Virus record (IMG/VR): IMGVR_UViG_3300037634_002953
Location: 38,638-102,637 of that record
DNA from: a virus
Lineage: Duplodnaviria > Caudoviricetes
Direction: 5' to 3' (one strand)
DNA: 64,000 bases
Shown here: in pieces, positions 8,558-43,536 of the stretch
Numbering within the stretch: position 1 is the stretch's first letter
How the letters are laid out: every line of letters begins with the position of its first letter
The notes under the pieces: generated by a model
The model's input: the letters and a program-made list of their open reading frames with translations, nothing else
Database searches by the model: none
What the model was told of the DNA's origin: nothing
Translations under genes and position numbers: made by a program

Positions 8558-9556
8558 TTACTCTCCTATATAATTAATTTGTAATTCTTTGCATTGATAC
8601 AAAAATATGGGTTTTCTAGGCAATTTAAATCCTGTACTAATTGTTTGTTTATTTTGTTGTATTAGATCTTGACATTTTAATGATATCCCGCCCACCAAAT
8701 TATCTGGAGTAGTATCACAAACTATAATATCTAATTCTTTTTGACTTTGTAATATATATTTATTATCTGTAGACAGTAGGCCGCTATTAACATAGAACTC
8801 TTTATCATTTAATATATTGCGCTGAAATGTTAAATGTTTTTGTTCGTTACTGGTAATTGATTGTTGTATGGATTGGTTGGTTTGGTTAAATGTATTGTTT
8901 GCATTAACATCTGTTTGACTAATAATGAAACTATATGATTTAAATATAGGATTTGTAAATATACTTATATTTTCCAGGCTGGCTATTGATTCCAGTTTTA
9001 CCTGTACCTTTTTCTGTTTAAATAATAGCAATGGATCAATTTCTATTTCCTGTAGTAAATAATCTGGTTGGTTTTTTTCTGTAATATATAAATTAAATTG
9101 TGTACCTTCAGCCAATTGCACTTCGTGTATTTCGTTTATTTTCATATGCTGCTTGATATTTGATACATTTAATGTCATTTCAATAATGCTAGTATCTTTA
9201 AATAATTCAAGGCACACATCAGCTGATTGCGGATTTTTTCCTTTAATTTGTTTAAATTTGACTACATCACTGCTTTGCAGTACTAGACTGTTTGATTTTG
9301 TAACAATGTCCGGTTGACCAGTAGTAAAATCTTCAACTATTTTGCATTTCTTTAATGATATTTTGCCAGCTAAAATATCAGCAATGATAGTCAGGTGACC
9401 AAATTGATGCACGGTACTAATATTATCGTCATTTTTCTCGATAAATTTAGGACTTAGCCGATAAATTTTCCCAGTTATATTATCAAACTTAATCCACCAC
9501 TGTCGGTGCGGTGTTTCTGTTTTAGATTTCTTTGTTGTATGTTGCATATATCTCAT
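8558..9556 (-). CDS. Hypothetical protein in the glycosyltransferase module
   Basis: 332-aa ORF tightly packed in the operon; no motif recognised. Confidence 0.55.
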   Translation of the reverse strand: MRYMQHTTKKSKTETPHRQWWIKFDNITGKIYRLSPKFIEKNDDNISTVHQFGHLTIIADILAGKISLKKCKIVEDFTTGQPDIVTKSNSLVLQSSDVVKFKQIKGKNPQSADVCLELFKDTSIIEMTLNVSNIKQHMKINEIHEVQLAEGTQFNLYITEKNQPDYLLQEIEIDPLLLFKQKKVQVKLESIASLENISIFTNPIFKSYSFIISQTDVNANNTFNQTNQSIQQSITSNEQKHLTFQRNILNDKEFYVNSGLLSTDNKYILQSQKELDIIVCDTTPDNLVGGISLKCQDLIQQNKQTISTGFKLPRKPIFLYQCKELQINYIGE

Positions 9557-35437: not shown

Positions 35438-36463
35438 ATGATGTTTGATGAGGCAGTAATCTTTACTGATATTCATTTTGGAATGAAGAATAATAGTCGA
35501 CAACACAATATCGACTGTGAAGAATTTATTAAATGGATGATTGAGCAAGCACACGCCAGAGGTGTTAAAAAATGCTTTTTCTTAGGTGATTGGCATCACA
35601 ATCGTGCCAGTATTAATGTTAGTACATTAAATTATACAACTAGTAATCTAAAACGACTTAGTGAAAACTTTGATGAAGTTATCATGATTACTGGTAATCA
35701 TGATTTATATTATCGTGAGAAACGTGAGATCCATAGTCTAGCAATGGTAGATCGTTACTCCAATATACGCATGATTAATGATGATATATATCAAGAAGAT
35801 GGTGTGGCATTTATTCCGTGGCTCGTTGAAGATGAATGGAAACGACTTAAAGAATTAAAATGCAAATTTATGTTTGGTCATTTTGAACTCCCTAGTTTTT
35901 ATATGAATGCGCTGGTGCAAATGCCAGATCATGGTCATGGCATAAAACCAGAACATTTTAAAAATGCTAACAAAGTGTTTAGCGGGCATTTTCATAAACG
36001 CCAGGAGCAAGGTAATATCATTTATCCCGGTAACTGTTTTCCACATAATTTTAGTGATGCATGGGATGATGATCGTGGCATTACGTTCCTTAAATGGAAT
36101 GGTGATCATGACTACATGACTTGGCCGGACGCGCCAAAGTATCGTACCATTCCGCTAAGTAAATTGATTGACAGACCTGAAGAAATATTGTCTAATAACA
36201 CATATTGTCGAATAAGTCTTGACGTTCCTATCACATATGAAGAAGCAAACTTTATTAAAGAAACATTTGCTAAACAGTATGACTTACGTGAAATTGCACT
36301 CATGCCTAGCGGAAAAGAAGAACTAAGTCAAGATTGGGATAATAACGGCAATGTTGAAGTTGAAAATGTTGATAGTATTGTATTAACACAACTTAGTGCT
36401 ATCGAATCACCAACTATAAAAAATAACATACTAATTGATATCTATAATAGGTTGAACCAATAA
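35438..36463 (+). CDS. gp47: Recombination nuclease, gp47/Mre11/SbcD-like
   Basis: FTDIHFG, LGDWHH, GNHD, GHFE, SGHFH metallophosphoesterase motifs. Confidence 0.92.
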   Translation: MMFDEAVIFTDIHFGMKNNSRQHNIDCEEFIKWMIEQAHARGVKKCFFLGDWHHNRASINVSTLNYTTSNLKRLSENFDEVIMITGNHDLYYREKREIHSLAMVDRYSNIRMINDDIYQEDGVAFIPWLVEDEWKRLKELKCKFMFGHFELPSFYMNALVQMPDHGHGIKPEHFKNANKVFSGHFHKRQEQGNIIYPGNCFPHNFSDAWDDDRGITFLKWNGDHDYMTWPDAPKYRTIPLSKLIDRPEEILSNNTYCRISLDVPITYEEANFIKETFAKQYDLREIALMPSGKEELSQDWDNNGNVEVENVDSIVLTQLSAIESPTIKNNILIDIYNRLNQ

Positions 36464-38236
36464 ATGCTAAAAATTAAAAATATAACTGTTAAGAATTTTA
36501 TGAGTGTAGGTAATGTAACACAAGCTGTACACTTTGATAATGCAGGATTAACTCTTGTATTAGGTAACAACTTAGATTTAGGTGGCGACGGTTCGCGTAA
36601 TGGCACTGGTAAAACTACAATTGTTAACGCATTAAGCTATGCATTGTATGGTAACGCATTATACAATATTAAGAAAGACAACTTAGTTAATAAAACAAAT
36701 AACAAAGGAATGTTGGTTACTGTAGAATTTGCAAAGGATGGCGTTAATTATCGCATTGAACGTGGACGCAAACCAAATATTTTCAAGTTTATTGTTAATG
36801 ATATTGACAATGACGATTCAACAGACGAGATGCAAGGTGAAGGTCGCCTGACCCAACATAACATTGAAAAAGTATTAGGTATGAGTCATACAATGTTCAA
36901 GCATATTGTTGCATTGAACACTTATACAGAACCATTCCTAAGTATGCGAGCTAATGACCAACGTGAGCTTATCGAGCAATTGTTGGGTATTACTCAGCTT
37001 AGTGAAAAGGCTGAAATTTTAAAAGAGCTTGTCAGAGAGAATAAAGAAAATATACAAGAAGAAACATATCGTATTAAGGCAGTTGAAGATGCCAATGAGC
37101 AAATACAAAAAAGTATCACTGATTTAGAACGCAGGGAGCGGCTGTGGGGTAAAAATACACAAACCCAAATTGACGATCTAAGCAAAGAACTCAATGCTAT
37201 GCAACTTGTAGATATTGATATAGAACTACAATCACATGCTGATTTTGCTGAATTTAAAAATCAAAAACTTCAATTTGATACATTAACTACTGAAGTTGCA
37301 AAGTTGACAACTTCAATTGAACGCGAACAAAAACGTCTTATAAAAGCACAAAAAGACTTGGATGCAACACTTGAACACAAATGCTATGCATGTGGCCAAG
37401 AATTGCATGACGATACACATGAAAAAATTGTTGCAACAAAAACAGAAACTGTGCGTGAAGGTCAGGAGCATATCGACGAACATATTACTCAAGTAACTGA
37501 ATACACTAATGCATTAAACACCATTGGTGAAATTGGCGTTGCTCCTAAATTACATTACAAAAGTATTCAAGAAGCATATGAACATCAAAACAAACTTAGT
37601 AATATTGAAAGTGAAATCAATCGTTTAAGTAATAGTAGTAACCCATATGTAGAACAAATTGAAAGTTTAACAGAAACTGGCTTACAGGTTTTAGATTGGG
37701 CTGAGGTCAATCGTTTAACTGAGTTAAAAGACCATCAAGATTTCCTACTTAAACTATTGACCAACAAGGATAGTTTTATTCGTAAAAAGATTATTGAACA
37801 AAACTTACAGTTCTTAAATAATCGCTTAGAATATTATATCACTAAGCTAGGATTGCCACATGAAGTACAATTCCAGAGCGATTTAAATGTAAGTATTGTA
37901 CAACTTGGCCAGGACTTAGACTTTGATAACTTATCACGTGGTGAGCGTAATAGATTGATACTTGGTCTCAGTTGGGCATTTCGTGATGTTTTCGAAAGTA
38001 TGAACCATCCTGTTAATTTAGTATGTATTGATGAACTAGTAGATAGTGGCATGGATACTATTGGTGTTGAAAGTGCGCTAGGAGTTCTTAAGAAAATGGA
38101 ACGTGATCGTTCCAAGAACATCTTGCTTATTTCGCATAGAGACGAGCTAGTAGGCCGTGTACAAAGTGTATTGCAGGTCACTAAAGAAAATGGATTTACT
38201 ACTTTCAATACTGAAATAGAAGTGATTGATGCATGA
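36464..38236 (+). CDS. gp46: Recombination ATPase, gp46/Rad50/SbcC-like
   Basis: Walker A NGTGKTT, coiled coil with CYACG hook, LSRGE signature, IDELVD, ISH. Confidence 0.93.
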   Translation: MLKIKNITVKNFMSVGNVTQAVHFDNAGLTLVLGNNLDLGGDGSRNGTGKTTIVNALSYALYGNALYNIKKDNLVNKTNNKGMLVTVEFAKDGVNYRIERGRKPNIFKFIVNDIDNDDSTDEMQGEGRLTQHNIEKVLGMSHTMFKHIVALNTYTEPFLSMRANDQRELIEQLLGITQLSEKAEILKELVRENKENIQEETYRIKAVEDANEQIQKSITDLERRERLWGKNTQTQIDDLSKELNAMQLVDIDIELQSHADFAEFKNQKLQFDTLTTEVAKLTTSIEREQKRLIKAQKDLDATLEHKCYACGQELHDDTHEKIVATKTETVREGQEHIDEHITQVTEYTNALNTIGEIGVAPKLHYKSIQEAYEHQNKLSNIESEINRLSNSSNPYVEQIESLTETGLQVLDWAEVNRLTELKDHQDFLLKLLTNKDSFIRKKIIEQNLQFLNNRLEYYITKLGLPHEVQFQSDLNVSIVQLGQDLDFDNLSRGERNRLILGLSWAFRDVFESMNHPVNLVCIDELVDSGMDTIGVESALGVLKKMERDRSKNILLISHRDELVGRVQSVLQVTKENGFTTFNTEIEVIDA

Positions 38237-38259
38237 TGATTTATTATATAAAAAATCAC

Positions 38260-38288
38260 TTGACATTAAACTTAGATTCAAGTATAGT
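38260..38288 (+). promoter_or_regulatory. Sigma70-type promoter upstream of the resolvase region
   Basis: TTGACA-N17-TATAGT. Confidence 0.65.
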
Positions 38289-38327
38289 TATAAGCATGAA
38301 TCTACAACCTGAAGATAAATTAAGACA

Positions 38328-38678
38328 GTGCCAATGGAAAATTTAATAAATATGATGCAGCCAAATGCACCATGGATATTTGAAAGTCCAGATGGCGGGA
38401 AGACTGTTTATCAGAGACAGGCTGGTGATTCAAAAAGAATTAAAATTAAGGATACTATGACAAAAAAGGGATCAGGACCTGATTCAGACGATTCAGACGA
38501 TACAACTAGTGATAATATTTTTGATATTATCAATAATGCTGATAACAATACAAAATCGAACAATATTTGGATTTATAAAACTGATTTAAATCATGCTAAA
38601 GTACGGCATGCTCTTGGTCCAGATGTGATTCAAGAGTTAGAAAAATTACTAGAGCAAGAGCATGGCGAGCAAGAGTAA
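38328..38678 (+). CDS. Hypothetical protein (IFESPDGGKTVY motif plus D/N-rich linker)
   Basis: ORF downstream of the promoter and overlapping the next gene; start uncertain. Confidence 0.55.
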   Translation: MPMENLINMMQPNAPWIFESPDGGKTVYQRQAGDSKRIKIKDTMTKKGSGPDSDDSDDTTSDNIFDIINNADNNTKSNNIWIYKTDLNHAKVRHALGPDVIQELEKLLEQEHGEQE

Positions 38679-39192
38679 AAATAAAGGAAAAGGATTCGAA
38701 CGTGAAGTTTGTAAATTACTTGGCGAACTTTATGACGATAATTTTGAACGTGTACCACATAGTGGCGCGTTTGTTGGTGGCATTAATGCCGCACGTAAGA
38801 GTACACTTACGGAAAATCAAATCAAGGCTTTCAAGGGCGATATAATTCCACCCGATCAGTGGCGTTATTTTAACTGCGAGTGTAAAAACTATGCAGATTT
38901 TCCCTTCCATCATTTATTACAATCAAAAACAATCCCATTACTAGAACAGTGGATTGACCAAACAATGGATGCTCACGATAAAGGTGACATAGACTTATTG
39001 TTTATGAAGTTTAATCGTAAAGGCATTTACTTGGCATTCCCTGCTAGTATCAAAAATCAATTCTCATTAACCAATCATATAACTTATAATTCCCAACATG
39101 GTCCATGGATTATGACTTTTTGGGAAGACTTCCAAAACTTAAAAACAAACACAAAATCAATAGAAACTCTGGCTATTAACGGCATATCTTAG
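38662..39192 (+). CDS. PD-(D/E)XK Holliday-junction resolvase-like nuclease
   Basis: SKNKGKGFERE, RVPHSGA, GDII.P, ECK.Y. Confidence 0.8.
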   Translation: MASKSKNKGKGFEREVCKLLGELYDDNFERVPHSGAFVGGINAARKSTLTENQIKAFKGDIIPPDQWRYFNCECKNYADFPFHHLLQSKTIPLLEQWIDQTMDAHDKGDIDLLFMKFNRKGIYLAFPASIKNQFSLTNHITYNSQHGPWIMTFWEDFQNLKTNTKSIETLAINGIS

Positions 39193-39249
39193 GCTAATAC
39201 AACCAATCCTACACAATACTAATACAGGCTTATACAAACTAGTCATAAG

Positions 39250-39655
39250 GTTGGCGCGCCGGATATTTCATTGCGCTATCAAAACCGTTCTGATGTGAGA
39301 CGGTAGATAATAGTTTTTCTAGTTAACTGCTTCAATACTCTACCCACTGGATTTCTAGTGGATGCCTTAAAAGATACTCAGATGAGTAATGCTTTAGTGT
39401 TGTCGTAATGGTTGTAGCATAGTAATATGTGAATAAACGATCAAGCTCTACTGACAATTGTATCTTGAGGGTAGCCGTTAGCTGATATCATGGCAACTGG
39501 TGGTCCTGCGTTGACTAGACGCATTGTAATAGGAGGTATCGCTCAACCGCCTCCCCCTGTTTAAAGGTTATGTTATGATATTGTGGATGATTGCGACAGG
39601 AAAAGTCAAAAATTATTTTTTTCACACTGTGGCCTGACTCAGGCTAAGTGTGATT
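39250..39655 (+). ncRNA. Candidate large multi-helix structured RNA, family unassigned
   Basis: ORF-free; nested long-range helices 39401-39409/39590-39598 and 39484-39495/39571-39582, many local hairpins, a GUAA tetraloop, and G-U pairs favouring the + strand. Confidence 0.55.
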
Positions 39656-39706
39656 GAATGCTTCGAGGAAAATAGTATAATATAGTTATTATCAACTAAT
39701 ATATAG

Positions 39707-39866
39707 TTTCGGTGTTTCACATTCAATTAATTATTATCGATTCGAAGAATATATAACGAAGGAATCTAAGATTCCTGAAGTTATCAATGCGTAGCATTGT
39801 ATATGTTATGAATATTGTTTTCAACTTATGCGATTTAAGCATATTTATGAATTGAAACACCTGAAA
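39707..39866. other. Inverted-repeat-closed hairpin cluster (possible origin or ssDNA element)
   Basis: TTTC-GGTGTTTCA-C-ATTCA pairs with TGAAT-TGAAACACC-T-GAAA, enclosing GGAATC-TAA-GATTCC and CAATGC-GTA-GCATTG. Confidence 0.45.
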
Positions 39867-39909
39867 AGTCAATTTTAAAATCCAGGCTATTATGAGATAG
39901 TCTAAGCCA

Positions 39910-40152
39910 TCATCGTGACTTAGACATTTTTTTCATTTGATTGTTTTGTTCTTCTCGTTGTTTATTGAGTTTGTTAATAAACATCTGAATCGCAGGCACA
40001 GGCATAGTCATTAACGATTGATAATTGAATGCGCCTCCACTATTTAAAATGACATCCATATAATTTTCTTCAATACCTTCAAGTTCACGTTGGTATCGAT
40101 CTACTATTTGTTCAATTTCTGCGGGCTGGGCAGAGGCAATCAGCCCACGAAA
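39910..40152 (-). CDS. Unannotated -1-frame extension (gp51-like, 80 aa) of the gp26-like gene
   Basis: Open frame FRGLIASAQPAEIEQ...MTMPVPAIQMFINKLNKQREEQ...SKSR* begins at the slippery site; its first ATG is 31 codons in. Confidence 0.65.
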   Translation of the reverse strand, partial: FRGLIASAQPAEIEQIVDRYQRELEGIEENYMDVILNSGGAFNYQSLMTMPVPAIQMFINKLNKQREEQNNQMKKMSKSR

Positions 40153-40158
40153 AAATTT
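40118..40158 (-). promoter_or_regulatory. Programmed -1 frameshift signal (slippery site plus H-type pseudoknot)
   Basis: A_AAU_UUU_UUC, then stem1 GGGCUG/CAGCCC and stem2 UCUGC/GCAGA. Confidence 0.65.
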
Positions 40159-40973
40159 GCAACATCTAGGTCAACCTTTGTTTTCCATTCATGATTGCAT
40201 TCTTGGCATTGTGCTGACAAGTTATCAGTATCTAATGTGTCTTTACTAAGCGACTCAACTTTGTCTTTAAGGCTATCATAATCATCTTTAGTAATAGTTT
40301 GTAGCCATTCTTTAATCATTGCATCGTCTGTAATTTCTTCGCCTTCTGGCGGTCTAACAGCACGAATTGAATTACTGATTAAATCAACAGTTAGTTCAGC
40401 TAGTTCAACAAATGTTTGTCCAAATAACTTTGTGCGATCTTCTTCATTAATATTTTCATCAGTTAATGCTTGAAGCATTTTGCGTTGCTTCACTTGCTGA
40501 ATTTGTAGCAATGTACGATCTCGTAAGTTATAAGGTTTTAAATTAATAATAAAACCATTATCCCATTCGATTCGATCAGCCTCATCAATTGGTGTCGCGG
40601 TCGCTAGTAATGCAGTAGCATCAATTTTCATCATGTTTAATGCTTCACATTCTGGGCATTTGATGTCAATATTTAACTCTTTGCCATATGTTGCTTGACG
40701 TATTGCTAGTAATATTACAACTAAGTCATTAACTGGCATTGTGTCAGGATCTTTAATATCTGGTGCGCAACTAGCAATAACAGCATGTGTGGCTTCACCA
40801 TTAAATAATGCATCAGGAGTTTTGTATATAAGCTCATCTCTGGCTGTCATTGGATATATTGCCAATTCTCCATCAACACTCAATTTAGGCATTGTATCAT
40901 AGTATTTTCCGCTGCTAGGCAGAGTTACAAATAGTGCTGGCTTTCTATAAGCCGCTATTAAAGGGTTTGTCAT
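40140..40973 (-). CDS. gp26: gp26-like baseplate hub / tail assembly chaperone
   Basis: V.LPS.GKYY, PMTARDE...KTPDAL.NG, D...IL.AIR.ATYG, CPEC, CQEC, ending NFF. Confidence 0.75.
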   Translation of the reverse strand: MTNPLIAAYRKPALFVTLPSSGKYYDTMPKLSVDGELAIYPMTARDELIYKTPDALFNGEATHAVIASCAPDIKDPDTMPVNDLVVILLAIRQATYGKELNIDIKCPECEALNMMKIDATALLATATPIDEADRIEWDNGFIINLKPYNLRDRTLLQIQQVKQRKMLQALTDENINEEDRTKLFGQTFVELAELTVDLISNSIRAVRPPEGEEITDDAMIKEWLQTITKDDYDSLKDKVESLSKDTLDTDNLSAQCQECNHEWKTKVDLDVANFFVG

Positions 40974-40986
40974 AAGTTAATCTCCA

Positions 40987-41028
40987 AATAAATACATTAT
41001 ATAAAAGCTGTATTCAGTTCTATTTATC
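40987..41028. promoter_or_regulatory. Pair of overlapping, oppositely oriented late promoters
   Basis: AATAAATA on + (40987-40994) toward the tape-measure genes; GATAAATA on - (41021-41028) toward gp26. Confidence 0.45.
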
Positions 41029-41040
41029 CAATTAAAAGGG

Positions 41041-43536
41041 GTGTTAATTTTGAATTTAGACAAAGAGTTTCAAAAAATAAATGCACAGTATCCCTGGGCA
41101 TCTAATCAAACCTTGTCTAGTATTCTGGATGACATGGTCGTCGACATTAAATCAAAAGCAAAAGCCCTTAAAATATTAGAAAAAAATGATACTGGTGTTA
41201 CTGAAACCCTAAATGAATTTCATAAGTTATCAAACAAGTATGGTAGGTTAATTGATTTATCTGCGCGTAAAATGCGCAATATAGGCGAAGGTGTAATGAA
41301 AACAGCCCGTAGTACTGATCCAATAGAAGGTGTGGCTAATTTAACAAAACTAGGCGGCGGTGCTCTTGAATCAGCTGGCGCTGGCCTTGGTAATTTTGGC
41401 GGTACTTTAGGTAAAAATTTTAAAGCTGCTGGTACTGGATTATCAGGTGTTGGTACAGCAAGTGTTACATTTGCAAGCATTATTAGTATATACGGTGCGC
41501 TTATAAATGAACAAGAAAAAAGTATGCGCTCAATGATTGATTATGGTCTTGTAGCTAGTGATGTTGGATTATATACTGATATGCGTGATGCGTTTGCTCA
41601 TATGGGCATGAGTTTAAATGAAGGTGTTGTATTTTTTAAAGACTTATATCCAGTTTTTGCTCAACTTGGTGATGATAACTTGCACACACTTGACGGATTT
41701 ACTGAAACGGTTTCATCTGGTATTACTGATAAAACTATTTCACGTTATGGTAGAACACAATCAGATGCAATGCGAAGTATTGCTGAAGAAGTACGTATCA
41801 TGTACAACTATAATCAAATTAGTGAATTAAATAATATATCAATGACCAAAGTATTAGACCGATATAATAACAGTAGCAAAATAACTACTGCATTGAGTTC
41901 AATTATGGGTGTTAAACGTGATGTATTAGAACAATCACGAATTGCAGCATTGAGTGATTTAGATTTTCAAACAGCATATATTCAAAATGAAGCAGCAATT
42001 ATCGACGCAATAGGCACAGATGGAGCAGCATATTTATTAGCTGCTCGCCAAAGTATTAGTAGCGGATTTAGTGCAATGTTAGGTGATGATTTTACTAGTT
42101 TAACTGATGATGCATTAACTCGTGCAATTTATGATTATGAAAATAACAATGATTTTTATGACAACATGGGTGAAGAATTAAATACAATCTTAAATTTGCT
42201 AGGTGCAGATTCTAGAAAAATTTATATGGATATGATGCAAGGTGTATTAGATGGTGGTCTTGATGCAACTGGTATAGAAACAGTTAAACGTGATTTTATA
42301 AAGAGTCTGCGCAACCCATCTGCAGATGTTCCAGCATTAGAAAGTGCATTTAATATTCCAACAAGTGAATTACTTATAGCAAGGGAATTAGTTGACCGCG
42401 CTATATTAGTGTCTGATGATTATGTAAACATGAGTGATAGTGATTTAGCACAAATAACTAACAGTGTTGACGAGTTTACTGATCGCAGTGATGATGCAAT
42501 TGAAGTAGTGGATAATATGAGAGCAGCAATGCGCAATATCTATGATCTAATAGCACCTGGATTTAAAAGCACAACAATTGCAATTGATTTATTTAGTGGC
42601 ATGTTGACCACATTGCAAAGTTCCATTAGTGTTGCTGTTAGTGCATTAAGTAAAGATAGAGAACTGGGCCAAGCCCAAAAGTCTTTTAAAGAAAACGTAG
42701 CAGCACAGAGAGCAGCATTGGAAACTGGCTTGCCACAACAGGCATTTAGAGAAACAGTTGTAGCACAGAGAGCAGCATTTAGTGATACTAATTTGCGTAG
42801 CCAAGCTATAACTGTTTTTAAAGAAAACGTAGCAGCACAGAGAGCAGCATTGGAAACTGGCTTGCCACAACAATCATTCAGAGAAAAAGTAGCAGCGCAA
42901 AAAGCAGCGCATGCAGCCCGTAGAGCAGAACGTATAGCTGCTGAAAATGCAGTTACTGGTGACTTAACAACAAGCGCAGTTGCAAATTTAGCAGAATTAG
43001 AACCACAGCCAATGTCGTTAGCACCACCCACGCAGGCGCCATTGGAACAACAAGCAAGCCCTGCGCCCAAATATCCTACATCATGGCCTATGGATAAGAC
43101 GGGAGTAAAATTAAGAAGTGAGCAGCGCGATTGGTTACTTAAATATGGAGATGAATATAACAAAGATGGAACAAAAAAAAGTTATATTCATCCTACTGTA
43201 TATTTTGGCAATGATAAACCAAACTTTGATGGTATAAGAGGTGATAAATGGTGGAATGGAGGAGATGTTCATGTATTTGATGGTACTTCATGGGTGCCCT
43301 ACGAAGCCCAAGCACCTTGGGCGACCAACGAAGCCCAAACACCTTCAAACCCAGCACCAACATTACTTACAAGTGTTGATGAACCAACAAACGAAGAACA
43401 ATCAATTAAATTAATAGATGACTCTTTAGCTGCAATTACTGAATTAAGAAACAATGCTGCTACAGATGCAAAAACATGGAACACTATTTCACAATGTGAT
43501 AATCTTGATAAAAGTAAAACGGCGGCAATTAAATAA
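41041..43536 (+). CDS. Tape-measure-like protein 1
   Basis: Helical A/G/L-rich; N-terminal YPWAS..TL shared with both neighbours; internal repeats; start may be TTG 41050. Confidence 0.55.
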   Translation: MLILNLDKEFQKINAQYPWASNQTLSSILDDMVVDIKSKAKALKILEKNDTGVTETLNEFHKLSNKYGRLIDLSARKMRNIGEGVMKTARSTDPIEGVANLTKLGGGALESAGAGLGNFGGTLGKNFKAAGTGLSGVGTASVTFASIISIYGALINEQEKSMRSMIDYGLVASDVGLYTDMRDAFAHMGMSLNEGVVFFKDLYPVFAQLGDDNLHTLDGFTETVSSGITDKTISRYGRTQSDAMRSIAEEVRIMYNYNQISELNNISMTKVLDRYNNSSKITTALSSIMGVKRDVLEQSRIAALSDLDFQTAYIQNEAAIIDAIGTDGAAYLLAARQSISSGFSAMLGDDFTSLTDDALTRAIYDYENNNDFYDNMGEELNTILNLLGADSRKIYMDMMQGVLDGGLDATGIETVKRDFIKSLRNPSADVPALESAFNIPTSELLIARELVDRAILVSDDYVNMSDSDLAQITNSVDEFTDRSDDAIEVVDNMRAAMRNIYDLIAPGFKSTTIAIDLFSGMLTTLQSSISVAVSALSKDRELGQAQKSFKENVAAQRAALETGLPQQAFRETVVAQRAAFSDTNLRSQAITVFKENVAAQRAALETGLPQQSFREKVAAQKAAHAARRAERIAAENAVTGDLTTSAVANLAELEPQPMSLAPPTQAPLEQQASPAPKYPTSWPMDKTGVKLRSEQRDWLLKYGDEYNKDGTKKSYIHPTVYFGNDKPNFDGIRGDKWWNGGDVHVFDGTSWVPYEAQAPWATNEAQTPSNPAPTLLTSVDEPTNEEQSIKLIDDSLAAITELRNNAATDAKTWNTISQCDNLDKSKTAAIK
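42684..42872 (+). repeat. 57-bp exact direct repeat (two copies, 132-bp period) plus degenerate copies
   Basis: 42684-42740 is identical to 42816-42872 and encodes FKENVAAQRAALETGLPQQ. Confidence 0.9.

Follow-up and report, generated by a model that had tools for sequence, protein, structure and literature searches.

The stretch of DNA analysed here (the window; 64,000 nucleotides (nt), positions 38,638 to 102,637 of the IMG/VR virus record IMGVR_UViG_3300037634_002953, Duplodnaviria; Caudoviricetes) encodes on its + strand, at 39236-39653, a non-coding RNA of ~420-430 nt that consists of a 5' domain, a core and a terminal hairpin. This RNA of ~430 bases is real, widespread and only partly catalogued: it folds as RNA, is read from the + strand and belongs to a family with a recurrent gene neighbourhood. 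An orphan motif of 141 nt now appears as a piece of an RNA of ~350-450 nt with one universal, pseudoknotted core and at least three variants of the 5' domain, and the home of the family is placed in uncultured aquatic jumbo phages of ~350 kb, next to a recombination nuclease. Large, intricately folded RNAs of unsolved function are rare, and those that have been solved tend to reveal new biochemistry; for example, HEARO turned out to guide IscB, and cages built of RNA alone are formed by GOLLD and ROOL. For the present family there are now more than 160 distinct sequences and two covariance models, together with exact boundaries and candidate protein partners.

A covarying fold with a pseudoknotted core

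A preliminary description of the sequence had singled out 39250-39655 as the only long stretch of the window free of open reading frames (ORFs) and as richer in G+C than other spacers, and both statements were borne out. The longest ORF-free gap, 39193-40139, measures 947 nt, contains no ORF of at least 50 amino acids (aa) and is about eight times as long as the next longest gap in the window (120 nt), and the + strand of 39193-39909 holds no ORF of at least 30 aa. The G+C content is 0.406 at 39222-39655 and 0.438 in the core (39433-39592), compared with 0.356 in the whole window and 0.28 in the adjoining spacer (39656-39909). When 39250-39655 was folded, the + strand reached -118.4 kcal/mol and none of 100 shuffled sequences was as good (z -3.20), whereas 15 of 100 shuffles were as good as the - strand (z -0.89). 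The + strand, which had been proposed from G-U pairs, is further marked by one pair that is U-G in 79 of the 80 distinct core sequences aligned below and that would give a C-A mismatch on the opposite strand.

The core helices were drawn from an alignment of 21 sequences, the window among these seeds, and are represented by a covariance model of 163 positions and 30 pairs (R1); with a second covariance model (R2) the window scores 121.7 bits. Model R1 gave 96 full-length matches (80 distinct) in 99 sources, those without a match being the loci of the phages PA5oct, Phosso and SCTP-2. In the alignment of these matches, which is itself fitted to R1, 95.1% of cells were paired versus 72.2% in shuffles, double-sided changes were present in 26 of the 30 pairs (592 cells versus 192 expected), and the covariation score was 0.632 compared with 0.207 after shuffling, with 0 of 500 shuffles reaching any of these measures. 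Similarly, controls in which the partners were slid by 1-3 columns gave a covariation score of at most 0.12. A second subfamily, which lay outside model building, was used as a check: 79 of the 80 loci compared matched the model with identical helices (84.7% paired versus 69.2%), and its pseudoknot helix was 82.9% paired with covariation in 7/7 pairs. A full-length alignment of 23 sequences carrying the window's type of 5' domain (A5) comprised 90 pairs in 17 helices, with double changes in 52 pairs, and was 89.8% paired versus 79.1%.

The best-supported element is the pseudoknot helix, which forms the centre of a 12-bp pairing noted at the outset (39484-95/39571-82) and is 97.9% paired in the R1 alignment, with changes on both sides in 7/7 pairs. 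It joins the loop of the P2 hairpin to a strand ~90 nt downstream, after P5, and closes a junction containing P3, P4 and P5; since its 5' strand lies within the P2 loop, this long-range helix is a pseudoknot. The P2 hairpin, which was missing from the initial list of stems, folds alone in 66/66 distinct segments with many different stem sequences, without use of an alignment. Compensatory changes were also found in the stems at 39441-39468 (P1a and P1b; 100% and 99.6% paired) and 39532-39554 (P4; 97.1%) in the R1 alignment, and in the terminal hairpin that had been placed at 39622-39653 (helix 16 of A5; 90.7% paired, with three pairs changing on both sides). The stem at 39507-23 (P3), by comparison, is only compatible with the data: it is 81.9% paired, the CUGCG of its 5' strand does not vary, and the register moves between subgroups. 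Near-invariant single-stranded stretches occur in all subfamilies, specifically GCUCU in the P1 internal loop, CUGCGUU, and the 11-nt loop of P4, which reads AYMGCNYAACC in the window's branch and ACCGGUCAACC in the second subfamily.

Because A5 misaligns part of the 5' domain in the rows of the window itself, the window's 5' stems were judged by eye against the three closest relatives. Compensatory changes were seen in this way for the proposed stems at 39252-39278 (H2), 39284-39304 (H3) and 39344-39361 (H6). The hairpin with a GNRA loop (39417-30) and the stem at 39375-88 also showed compensatory changes by eye, but both are optional inserts, common only to locus L004. A pairing of CUACCC with GGGUAG, suggested as a further pseudoknot, was unsupported in the alignments (by eye) beyond the window's own subgroup. 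For a suggested long-range helix of 9 bp (39401-09/39590-98), an alignment-free duplex test gave no signal (-18.0 kcal/mol for cognate strands versus -18.1 for shuffled ones); by eye, some members of the family retain GUCAA/UUGAC. As a whole, the preliminary description of the structure was largely right.

The RNA is preceded by a G-poor leader with GGCTAA / CTAAYAC boxes, which lie in the window at 39192-97, 39194 and 39219, and two or three such boxes with a spacing of ~10-12 nt are found upstream of the RNA in relatives (L013, L017, L003, L004 and L077). These boxes could be a site for protein binding, processing or Rho loading. The terminal hairpin contains the word GGCUAA again, within its invariant strand. 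An intrinsic terminator was considered for this hairpin (39623-39652) and rejected, as it has no U tract; the letters that follow are UUGAAUGC, and the terminator scan calls none there.

Table 1 Features of the RNA and its surroundings, in window coordinates.
Feature	Position	Strand	Remarks
gp47-like gene	35438-36463		
gp46-like gene	36464-38236		
Sigma-70-like promoter match, TTGACA-17-TATAGT	38260-38288	+	11/12 consensus letters; consensus match only
116-aa ORF	38328-38678		Between gp46-like gene and nuclease gene
PD-(D/E)XK nuclease gene, 176 aa	38662-39192	+	Pfam PDDEXK_15 (PF24608), E 2.9e-25
Leader	39192-39235	+	G-poor, CA-rich; GGCTAA / CTAAYAC boxes; adjoins nuclease stop codon
5' domain	39236-39432	+	Type differs between subfamilies
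H1	39237-42/39319-24	+	5' domain
H2	39253-57/39273-77	+	5' domain; GGCGC/GCGCT
H3	39285-89/39299-303	+	5' domain
H6	39344-50/39355-61	+	5' domain
Optional hairpins	39376-87 and 39417-30	+	5' domain
Universal core, ~160 nt	39433-39592	+	Model R1, 134 bits, E 3e-32, model positions 1-163
P1a	39441-45/39464-68	+	Core
P1b	39449-51/39460-62	+	Core
P2 hairpin	39474-83/39492-501	+	Core
Pseudoknot helix	39485-91/39575-81	+	Core
P3	39507-10/39520-23	+	Core
P4	39532-37/39549-54	+	Core; invariant 11-nt loop
P5	39556-57/39566-67	+	Core
Linker	39593-39622	+	Variable, A/U-rich; length and sequence differ among close relatives
Terminal hairpin	39623-39652	+	3' strand GGCUAAGUGUGA nearly invariant across subfamilies
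Promoter-like site, TTGAAT-16-TATAAT	39654-39681	+	10/12 consensus letters; directly after RNA
Two small hairpins	39761-39809	+	Second (39785-99) plus T-rich tail terminator-like
Small ORF, 49 aa as listed	39910-40059	-	Convergent to RNA
gp26-like baseplate hub gene, 277 aa	40140-40973	-	PF12322 T4_baseplate, E 4.6e-18

Relation to Polynucleobacter-1 and distribution of the family

The RNA had been put forward as undescribed, which holds only in part because a portion of its sister form is Polynucleobacter-1 (Rfam RF01718). The window matched 0 of 4227 Rfam families at the gathering threshold, and neither the universal core nor the 3' hairpin has an Rfam match. In the sister subgroup, whose upstream gene encodes a GIY-YIG nuclease, however, the 5' domain is RF01718, which was found at full length directly 5' of the core in 19/19 loci (38.3-94.7 bits); for example, locus L090 carries the motif at 8648-8789 and the core at 8800-8955. 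Across 29 related loci searched against Rfam, RF01718 was the sole family matched. The window had no match to RF01718 at gathering (37 bits) and none to E 10 in 39100-40200 or 39180-39460, and 0/10 loci of other subfamilies, including L004 of the window's subgroup, matched it. Two subfamilies with different 5' domains, a shorter type like that of L013 and a divergent variant recovered with a 17-mer, are without RF01718. Among known RNA classes, no tRNA, tmRNA or intron core had been recognised in the sequence, and accordingly ARAGORN called 0 genes in the whole window and no Rfam intron model matched at E 10.

Helices H1 (CUACUG/CAGUAG in the sister subgroup and AACUAG/CUAGUU in the window), H2, H3 and H6 appear to be common to the sister subgroup and the window, in an alike order of hairpins, as seen in alignment A5 with its partial misalignment of the window. 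The H3 hairpin reads CCGUUCUGAUGUGAGACGG in the window and differs by one loop base in the sister subgroup. A nhmmer profile of the sister 5' domain matched the window at 39236-39306 with a marginal E of 0.046, and loci L001 and L006 at the equivalent place with an E of 0.035. Judging from these sequence similarities, the window's 5' domain is probably a divergent counterpart of Polynucleobacter-1. The RF01718 model, at 141 nt, omits the 5' strand of H1, the ~160-nt core, the linker and the terminal hairpin; as it begins past the 5' strand of H1 and ends before the core, it appears to represent one piece of an RNA about three times its length.

Rfam lists RF01718 as a small RNA (sRNA) of Burkholderiales and of fresh water and estuary, and it is found here on jumbo-phage contigs. 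A search for RF01718 in three Burkholderiales genomes and 59 of one family gave 0 matches and was uninformative, with 14 controls also silent. In the 2010 survey, the table row for this motif reads y, y, ? (Weinberg et al. 2010, PMC2864571). A literature search on Polynucleobacter-1 found no mention after 2010, and one on phage structured RNAs and jumbo-phage noncoding RNAs did not turn up the RNA in its complete form. Neither Rfam nor the literature searched contains the complete RNA, the pseudoknotted core, the three subfamilies, the jumbo-phage carriers or the nuclease neighbourhood. An intergenic screen of IMG/VR describes motifs of 29-151 nt (Fremin et al. 2023, PMC10690425), and pieces of the present RNA may be among them.

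The family comprises at least 168 distinct core sequences at more than 230 IMG/VR loci. A protein search of IMG/VR with the window's nuclease returned 47 loci, of which 28 had an RNA relative by nhmmer and three more by covariance model, one ended at a contig edge and 15 were without the RNA. A degenerate pattern made of two conserved blocks recovered at least 120 further IMG/VR stretches (119 of the 120 listed being true relatives), which together with the loci from the nuclease search gave at least 95 distinct sequences. In addition, an exact 17-mer from the divergent variant was present in at least 120 IMG/VR stretches, and 79 of the 80 compared matched the model (73 distinct rows). The pattern also matched 50 times in 185,579 prokaryote genomes, but by nhmmer 49 of these were chance matches, and with a single true relative among the 50 the RNA family is taken to be phage-specific. 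The lone relative, L176 (JAPKCA010000155.1, 2998 nt), lies on a contig binned into a Flavobacteriales metagenome-assembled genome; it is better explained as a piece of phage DNA than as a bacterial gene, and gives a weak hint to the host at most.

The carriers are uncultured aquatic T4-like jumbo phages of ~350 kb. One carrier genome is complete with terminal repeats (346,856 bp) and holds a single copy of the RNA; others measure 235 kb (66% complete) and 148 kb (42%), and the source record of the window is 102.6 kb (28% complete by CheckV). The 235-kb phage contig (G001) encodes, far from its main copy at 217149-217304, a second, divergent copy of the core at 92606-92763 (L222 3106-3264; 57.8 bits with R2), which is flanked by a PNP_UDP_1 phosphorylase-family gene and, on its other side, a gene for a 469-aa protein of unknown function.

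The cultured phages whose proteins are most similar are the jumbo phages PA5oct, Phosso, Atu_ph07 and SCTP-2 (40-50% identity). No match to the RNA was found by nhmmer, R1 or R2 in the syntenic loci and whole genomes of PA5oct, Phosso and SCTP-2 (best 13.8 bits, E 0.58), by R2 in Melnitz-3 and phiN3, or by blastn in distant mode with 39150-39950 against 50,697 phage records. A match of S-SSM7 to R2 (17.3 bits, E 0.04) lies inside a coding sequence and was taken as noise. Four non-coding RNAs are listed for PA5oct in its description (PMC7318152), none of the four at the syntenic gap. In PA5oct, the interval beside the resolvase gene (75.7-77.2 kb; L169) contains just four tiny annotated ORFs of 38-50 aa, and the syntenic interval of Phosso (229.8-230.8 kb; L170) is a 1-kb unannotated gap beside an RNase HI gene. 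These intervals, which have no match to the RNA models, could hold another non-coding element.

Gene neighbourhood and candidate roles

The usual gene order is gp46, in some loci a small gene, a small nuclease gene, the RNA, in some loci a + strand gene, a small - strand ORF, a gp26-like gene on the - strand and a long + strand gene. According to Pfam searches of representatives, some loci have PDDEXK_15 as the upstream nuclease and others a SegE-type GIY-YIG protein of 142-150 aa, the catalytic domain of the latter spanning nearly the full length. A simple motif count placed a nuclease one or two ORFs upstream in 142 of the 158 loci with upstream sequence (85/89 in the first family and 57/69 in the second), and in ~18 loci an extra ORF lies between the nuclease and the RNA. 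Both nucleases also have homologues without the RNA, in PA5oct, Phosso, SCTP-2, Melnitz-3, S-SSM7 and phiN3 and in 15 of the 47 metagenomic PD-(D/E)XK loci. Among 95 distinct members, 82 have a same-strand gene ahead of the RNA, and the first downstream ORF is co-directional in 44 and convergent in 37, with the contig ending in the remaining 14. The co-directional genes are unrelated to one another (a 146-aa protein without a Pfam match, an NT5C-like protein and others). The window has no downstream + strand gene and no remnant of the 146-aa gene (best tblastn E 0.04, over 12 residues).

We give about an even chance to the proposal that this folded RNA acts in trans and does not regulate a gene next to it. 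An independent RNA gene at the end of the recombination module is favoured because both nucleases are common without the RNA, the downstream genes are inconstant and a second copy lies elsewhere. Its transcript would form the last part of the gp47-gp46-nuclease transcription unit or would start shortly before the RNA, which would then most likely serve in trans as the RNA component of a ribonucleoprotein or through catalysis or binding of its own; in a bold reading, the pseudoknotted core with its invariant loops would be a new large ribozyme. Several observations weigh against a trans-acting RNA gene. No separate promoter was evident to the promoter scan between the nuclease stop codon and the RNA, and the terminator scan found none at the RNA end, the nearest being at 39785-99. 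In a DNase-treated marine metatranscriptome, a 152-nt contig aligned to 39434-39585 at a depth of 3.3, compared with 3.8-6.2 for the flanking genes, and is not proof of transcription since DNA carry-over into this RNA library is possible. The columns of the 2010 table presumably stand for RNA, cis-regulatory and riboswitch, so that Polynucleobacter-1 was probably marked cis-regulatory by its discoverers. In addition, the adjacency of a small same-strand nuclease gene in ~90% of loci also fits a role in cis in the 3' untranslated region (UTR) or an RNA that partners the nuclease.

The less probable but most serious rival is a 3'-UTR element that acts in cis on the nuclease operon. Still joined to the nuclease mRNA or released from it by processing, the folded RNA would set the stability, processing or translation of this mRNA, with the nuclease possibly binding it as feedback, and would also mark where the rightward unit stops ahead of the convergent baseplate genes. 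The same-strand upstream gene, the nuclease within two ORFs and the want of a separate promoter all speak for it, but an RNA of ~400 nt that has 17 helices, invariant loops and a pseudoknot goes far beyond the needs of known stabilisers of mRNA ends, the second copy lies behind a phosphorylase gene, not a nuclease gene, and homologues of both nucleases exist without the RNA. Alternatively, by analogy with HEARO and IscB, the RNA might be a scaffold or guide for the adjacent nuclease, the single-domain protein supplying cleavage and the RNA targeting or activation. Such a partnership would account for the tight, co-oriented adjacency of three RNA subfamilies to single-domain nucleases of two unrelated folds, and for a large, ornate RNA beside GIY-YIG proteins that are nearly all catalytic domain. 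We nevertheless regard it as improbable, if still a live rival, given that both nuclease families are common in phages without the RNA, that ~18 loci have an intervening ORF and the second copy in G001 no adjoining nuclease, and that no hypervariable, guide-like segment is apparent by eye, the sole variable stretch being low-complexity A/U.

The inconstancy of the downstream genes argues that the RNA is not a 5' leader or riboswitch. Although 44/95 members have a + strand gene within ~75-230 nt, and the 2010 entry probably marks the motif as cis-regulatory with riboswitch status left open, the next gene is convergent in 37/95, the window has no + strand gene downstream, the co-directional genes are unrelated, and a promoter-like site and two hairpins intervene; gene context thus largely refutes this role, which we hold to be quite unlikely. 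Still less credence attaches to the initially suggested replication primer or origin R-loop RNA, which would resemble ColE1 RNA II or the T4 oriF/oriG transcripts. The RNA does adjoin gp47, gp46 and a resolvase-type nuclease gene, and the syntenic interval of Phosso carries an RNase HI gene, both links being of position only, but the second copy has an unrelated, metabolic-gene neighbourhood and cultured relatives possess the same recombination module without the RNA. Primer RNAs are not known to require invariant loops or a long-range pseudoknot, which also counts against this role. A DNA-level element, or an artefact of chance or composition, has a barely appreciable probability: only the position at a switch in transcription direction would suit it, and it is contradicted by compensatory changes in more than 160 distinct sequences, by strand-specific G-U pairs and by shuffle and slide controls without signal.

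Comparison with known systems places the RNA apart from each of them. HEARO, the IscB omega-RNA, is likewise large, ornate and adjacent to the gene of a small nuclease, and its discovery came years before its function was understood, but the present RNA has no Rfam match, lies 3' of the gene, neighbours PD-(D/E)XK or GIY-YIG proteins instead of HNH/RuvC, has no IscB or TnpB neighbour and shows no guide segment by eye. The T4 stable RNAs C and D are likewise non-coding RNA genes beside a GIY-YIG Seg-type nuclease gene, that of the homing endonuclease SegB; they differ in being ~120-140 nt long and located in a tRNA cluster. Group I introns of T4-like phages resemble the present RNA in size, pseudoknotted core and GIY-YIG company, but an intron was rejected, as no Rfam intron model matched at E 10, the upstream ORF stops at 39192 with no + strand ORF continuing, and the order of helices differs. 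A hammerhead ribozyme was also rejected: the H3 loop, CUGAUGUGA, departs from the CUGANGA...GAAA core, and Rfam gave no match. The window is without a match to OLE, raiA or other large orphan RNAs of Rfam (0/4227 families). GOLLD and ROOL are similarly large, multi-helix, covarying RNAs of unsolved function that are often found in phages (10.1101/2024.12.08.627333); the present RNA differs in being smaller (~350-450 nt) and in having no Rfam match and no tRNA gene in the window.

Flanking signals and neighbouring genes

The promoter that had been proposed at 38260 is present as a consensus match (Table 1), and it is possible that a transcript starting there runs through the two upstream genes into the RNA. 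Downstream of the RNA, relatives have hairpins equivalent to the two small ones of the window, with changed stems (by eye). In relatives, the promoter-like site and the two hairpins (39654-39809) precede the + strand gene of ~146 aa. The metatranscriptome described above (X1) contained 32% of sampled words of 38000-41000, with five contigs aligned; the uncovered parts (39111-39413, 39616-39918 and others) are uninformative. Three further runs contained next to none of the sampled words of the same interval. A metatranscriptome contig lacks 9 nt at 38481, within an Asp/Ser-rich repeat (GATTCAGACGATTCAGACGAT) of the 116-aa ORF, which is an in-frame strain difference.

Proteins 40-42% identical to the window's nuclease occur in SCTP-2, PA5oct and close relatives of PA5oct, and one of 37% identity in Phosso; several of the homologues in cultured phages are annotated as Holliday-junction resolvase. 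Relatives of the GIY-YIG gene were found in 500 cultured phage records, mostly cyanophages, and are often labelled 'NAD synthetase'. The 142-aa protein of L090 matches Pfam SegE_GIY-YIG (E 3e-33), and its relatives with that label belong to T4-like gene cluster 213. The label, as carried by S-SSM7 (195003-195440; L349), phiN3 gp310 (L350) and other cyanophages, looks like a propagated misannotation.

On the far side of the gap, the 49-aa ORF is similar to the C-terminal part of ORFs of 71-95 aa that precede the gp26-like gene in relatives. The ORF probably represents a genuine small gene, which in the window may begin upstream of the ATG listed for it. Downstream of the baseplate gene, 41041-43536 (+) encodes an 831-aa protein without a Pfam match, whose translation contains internal repeats (KENVAAQRAALETGLPQQ.FRE; ~3 copies by eye) and which may be a tape-measure-like or hub protein.

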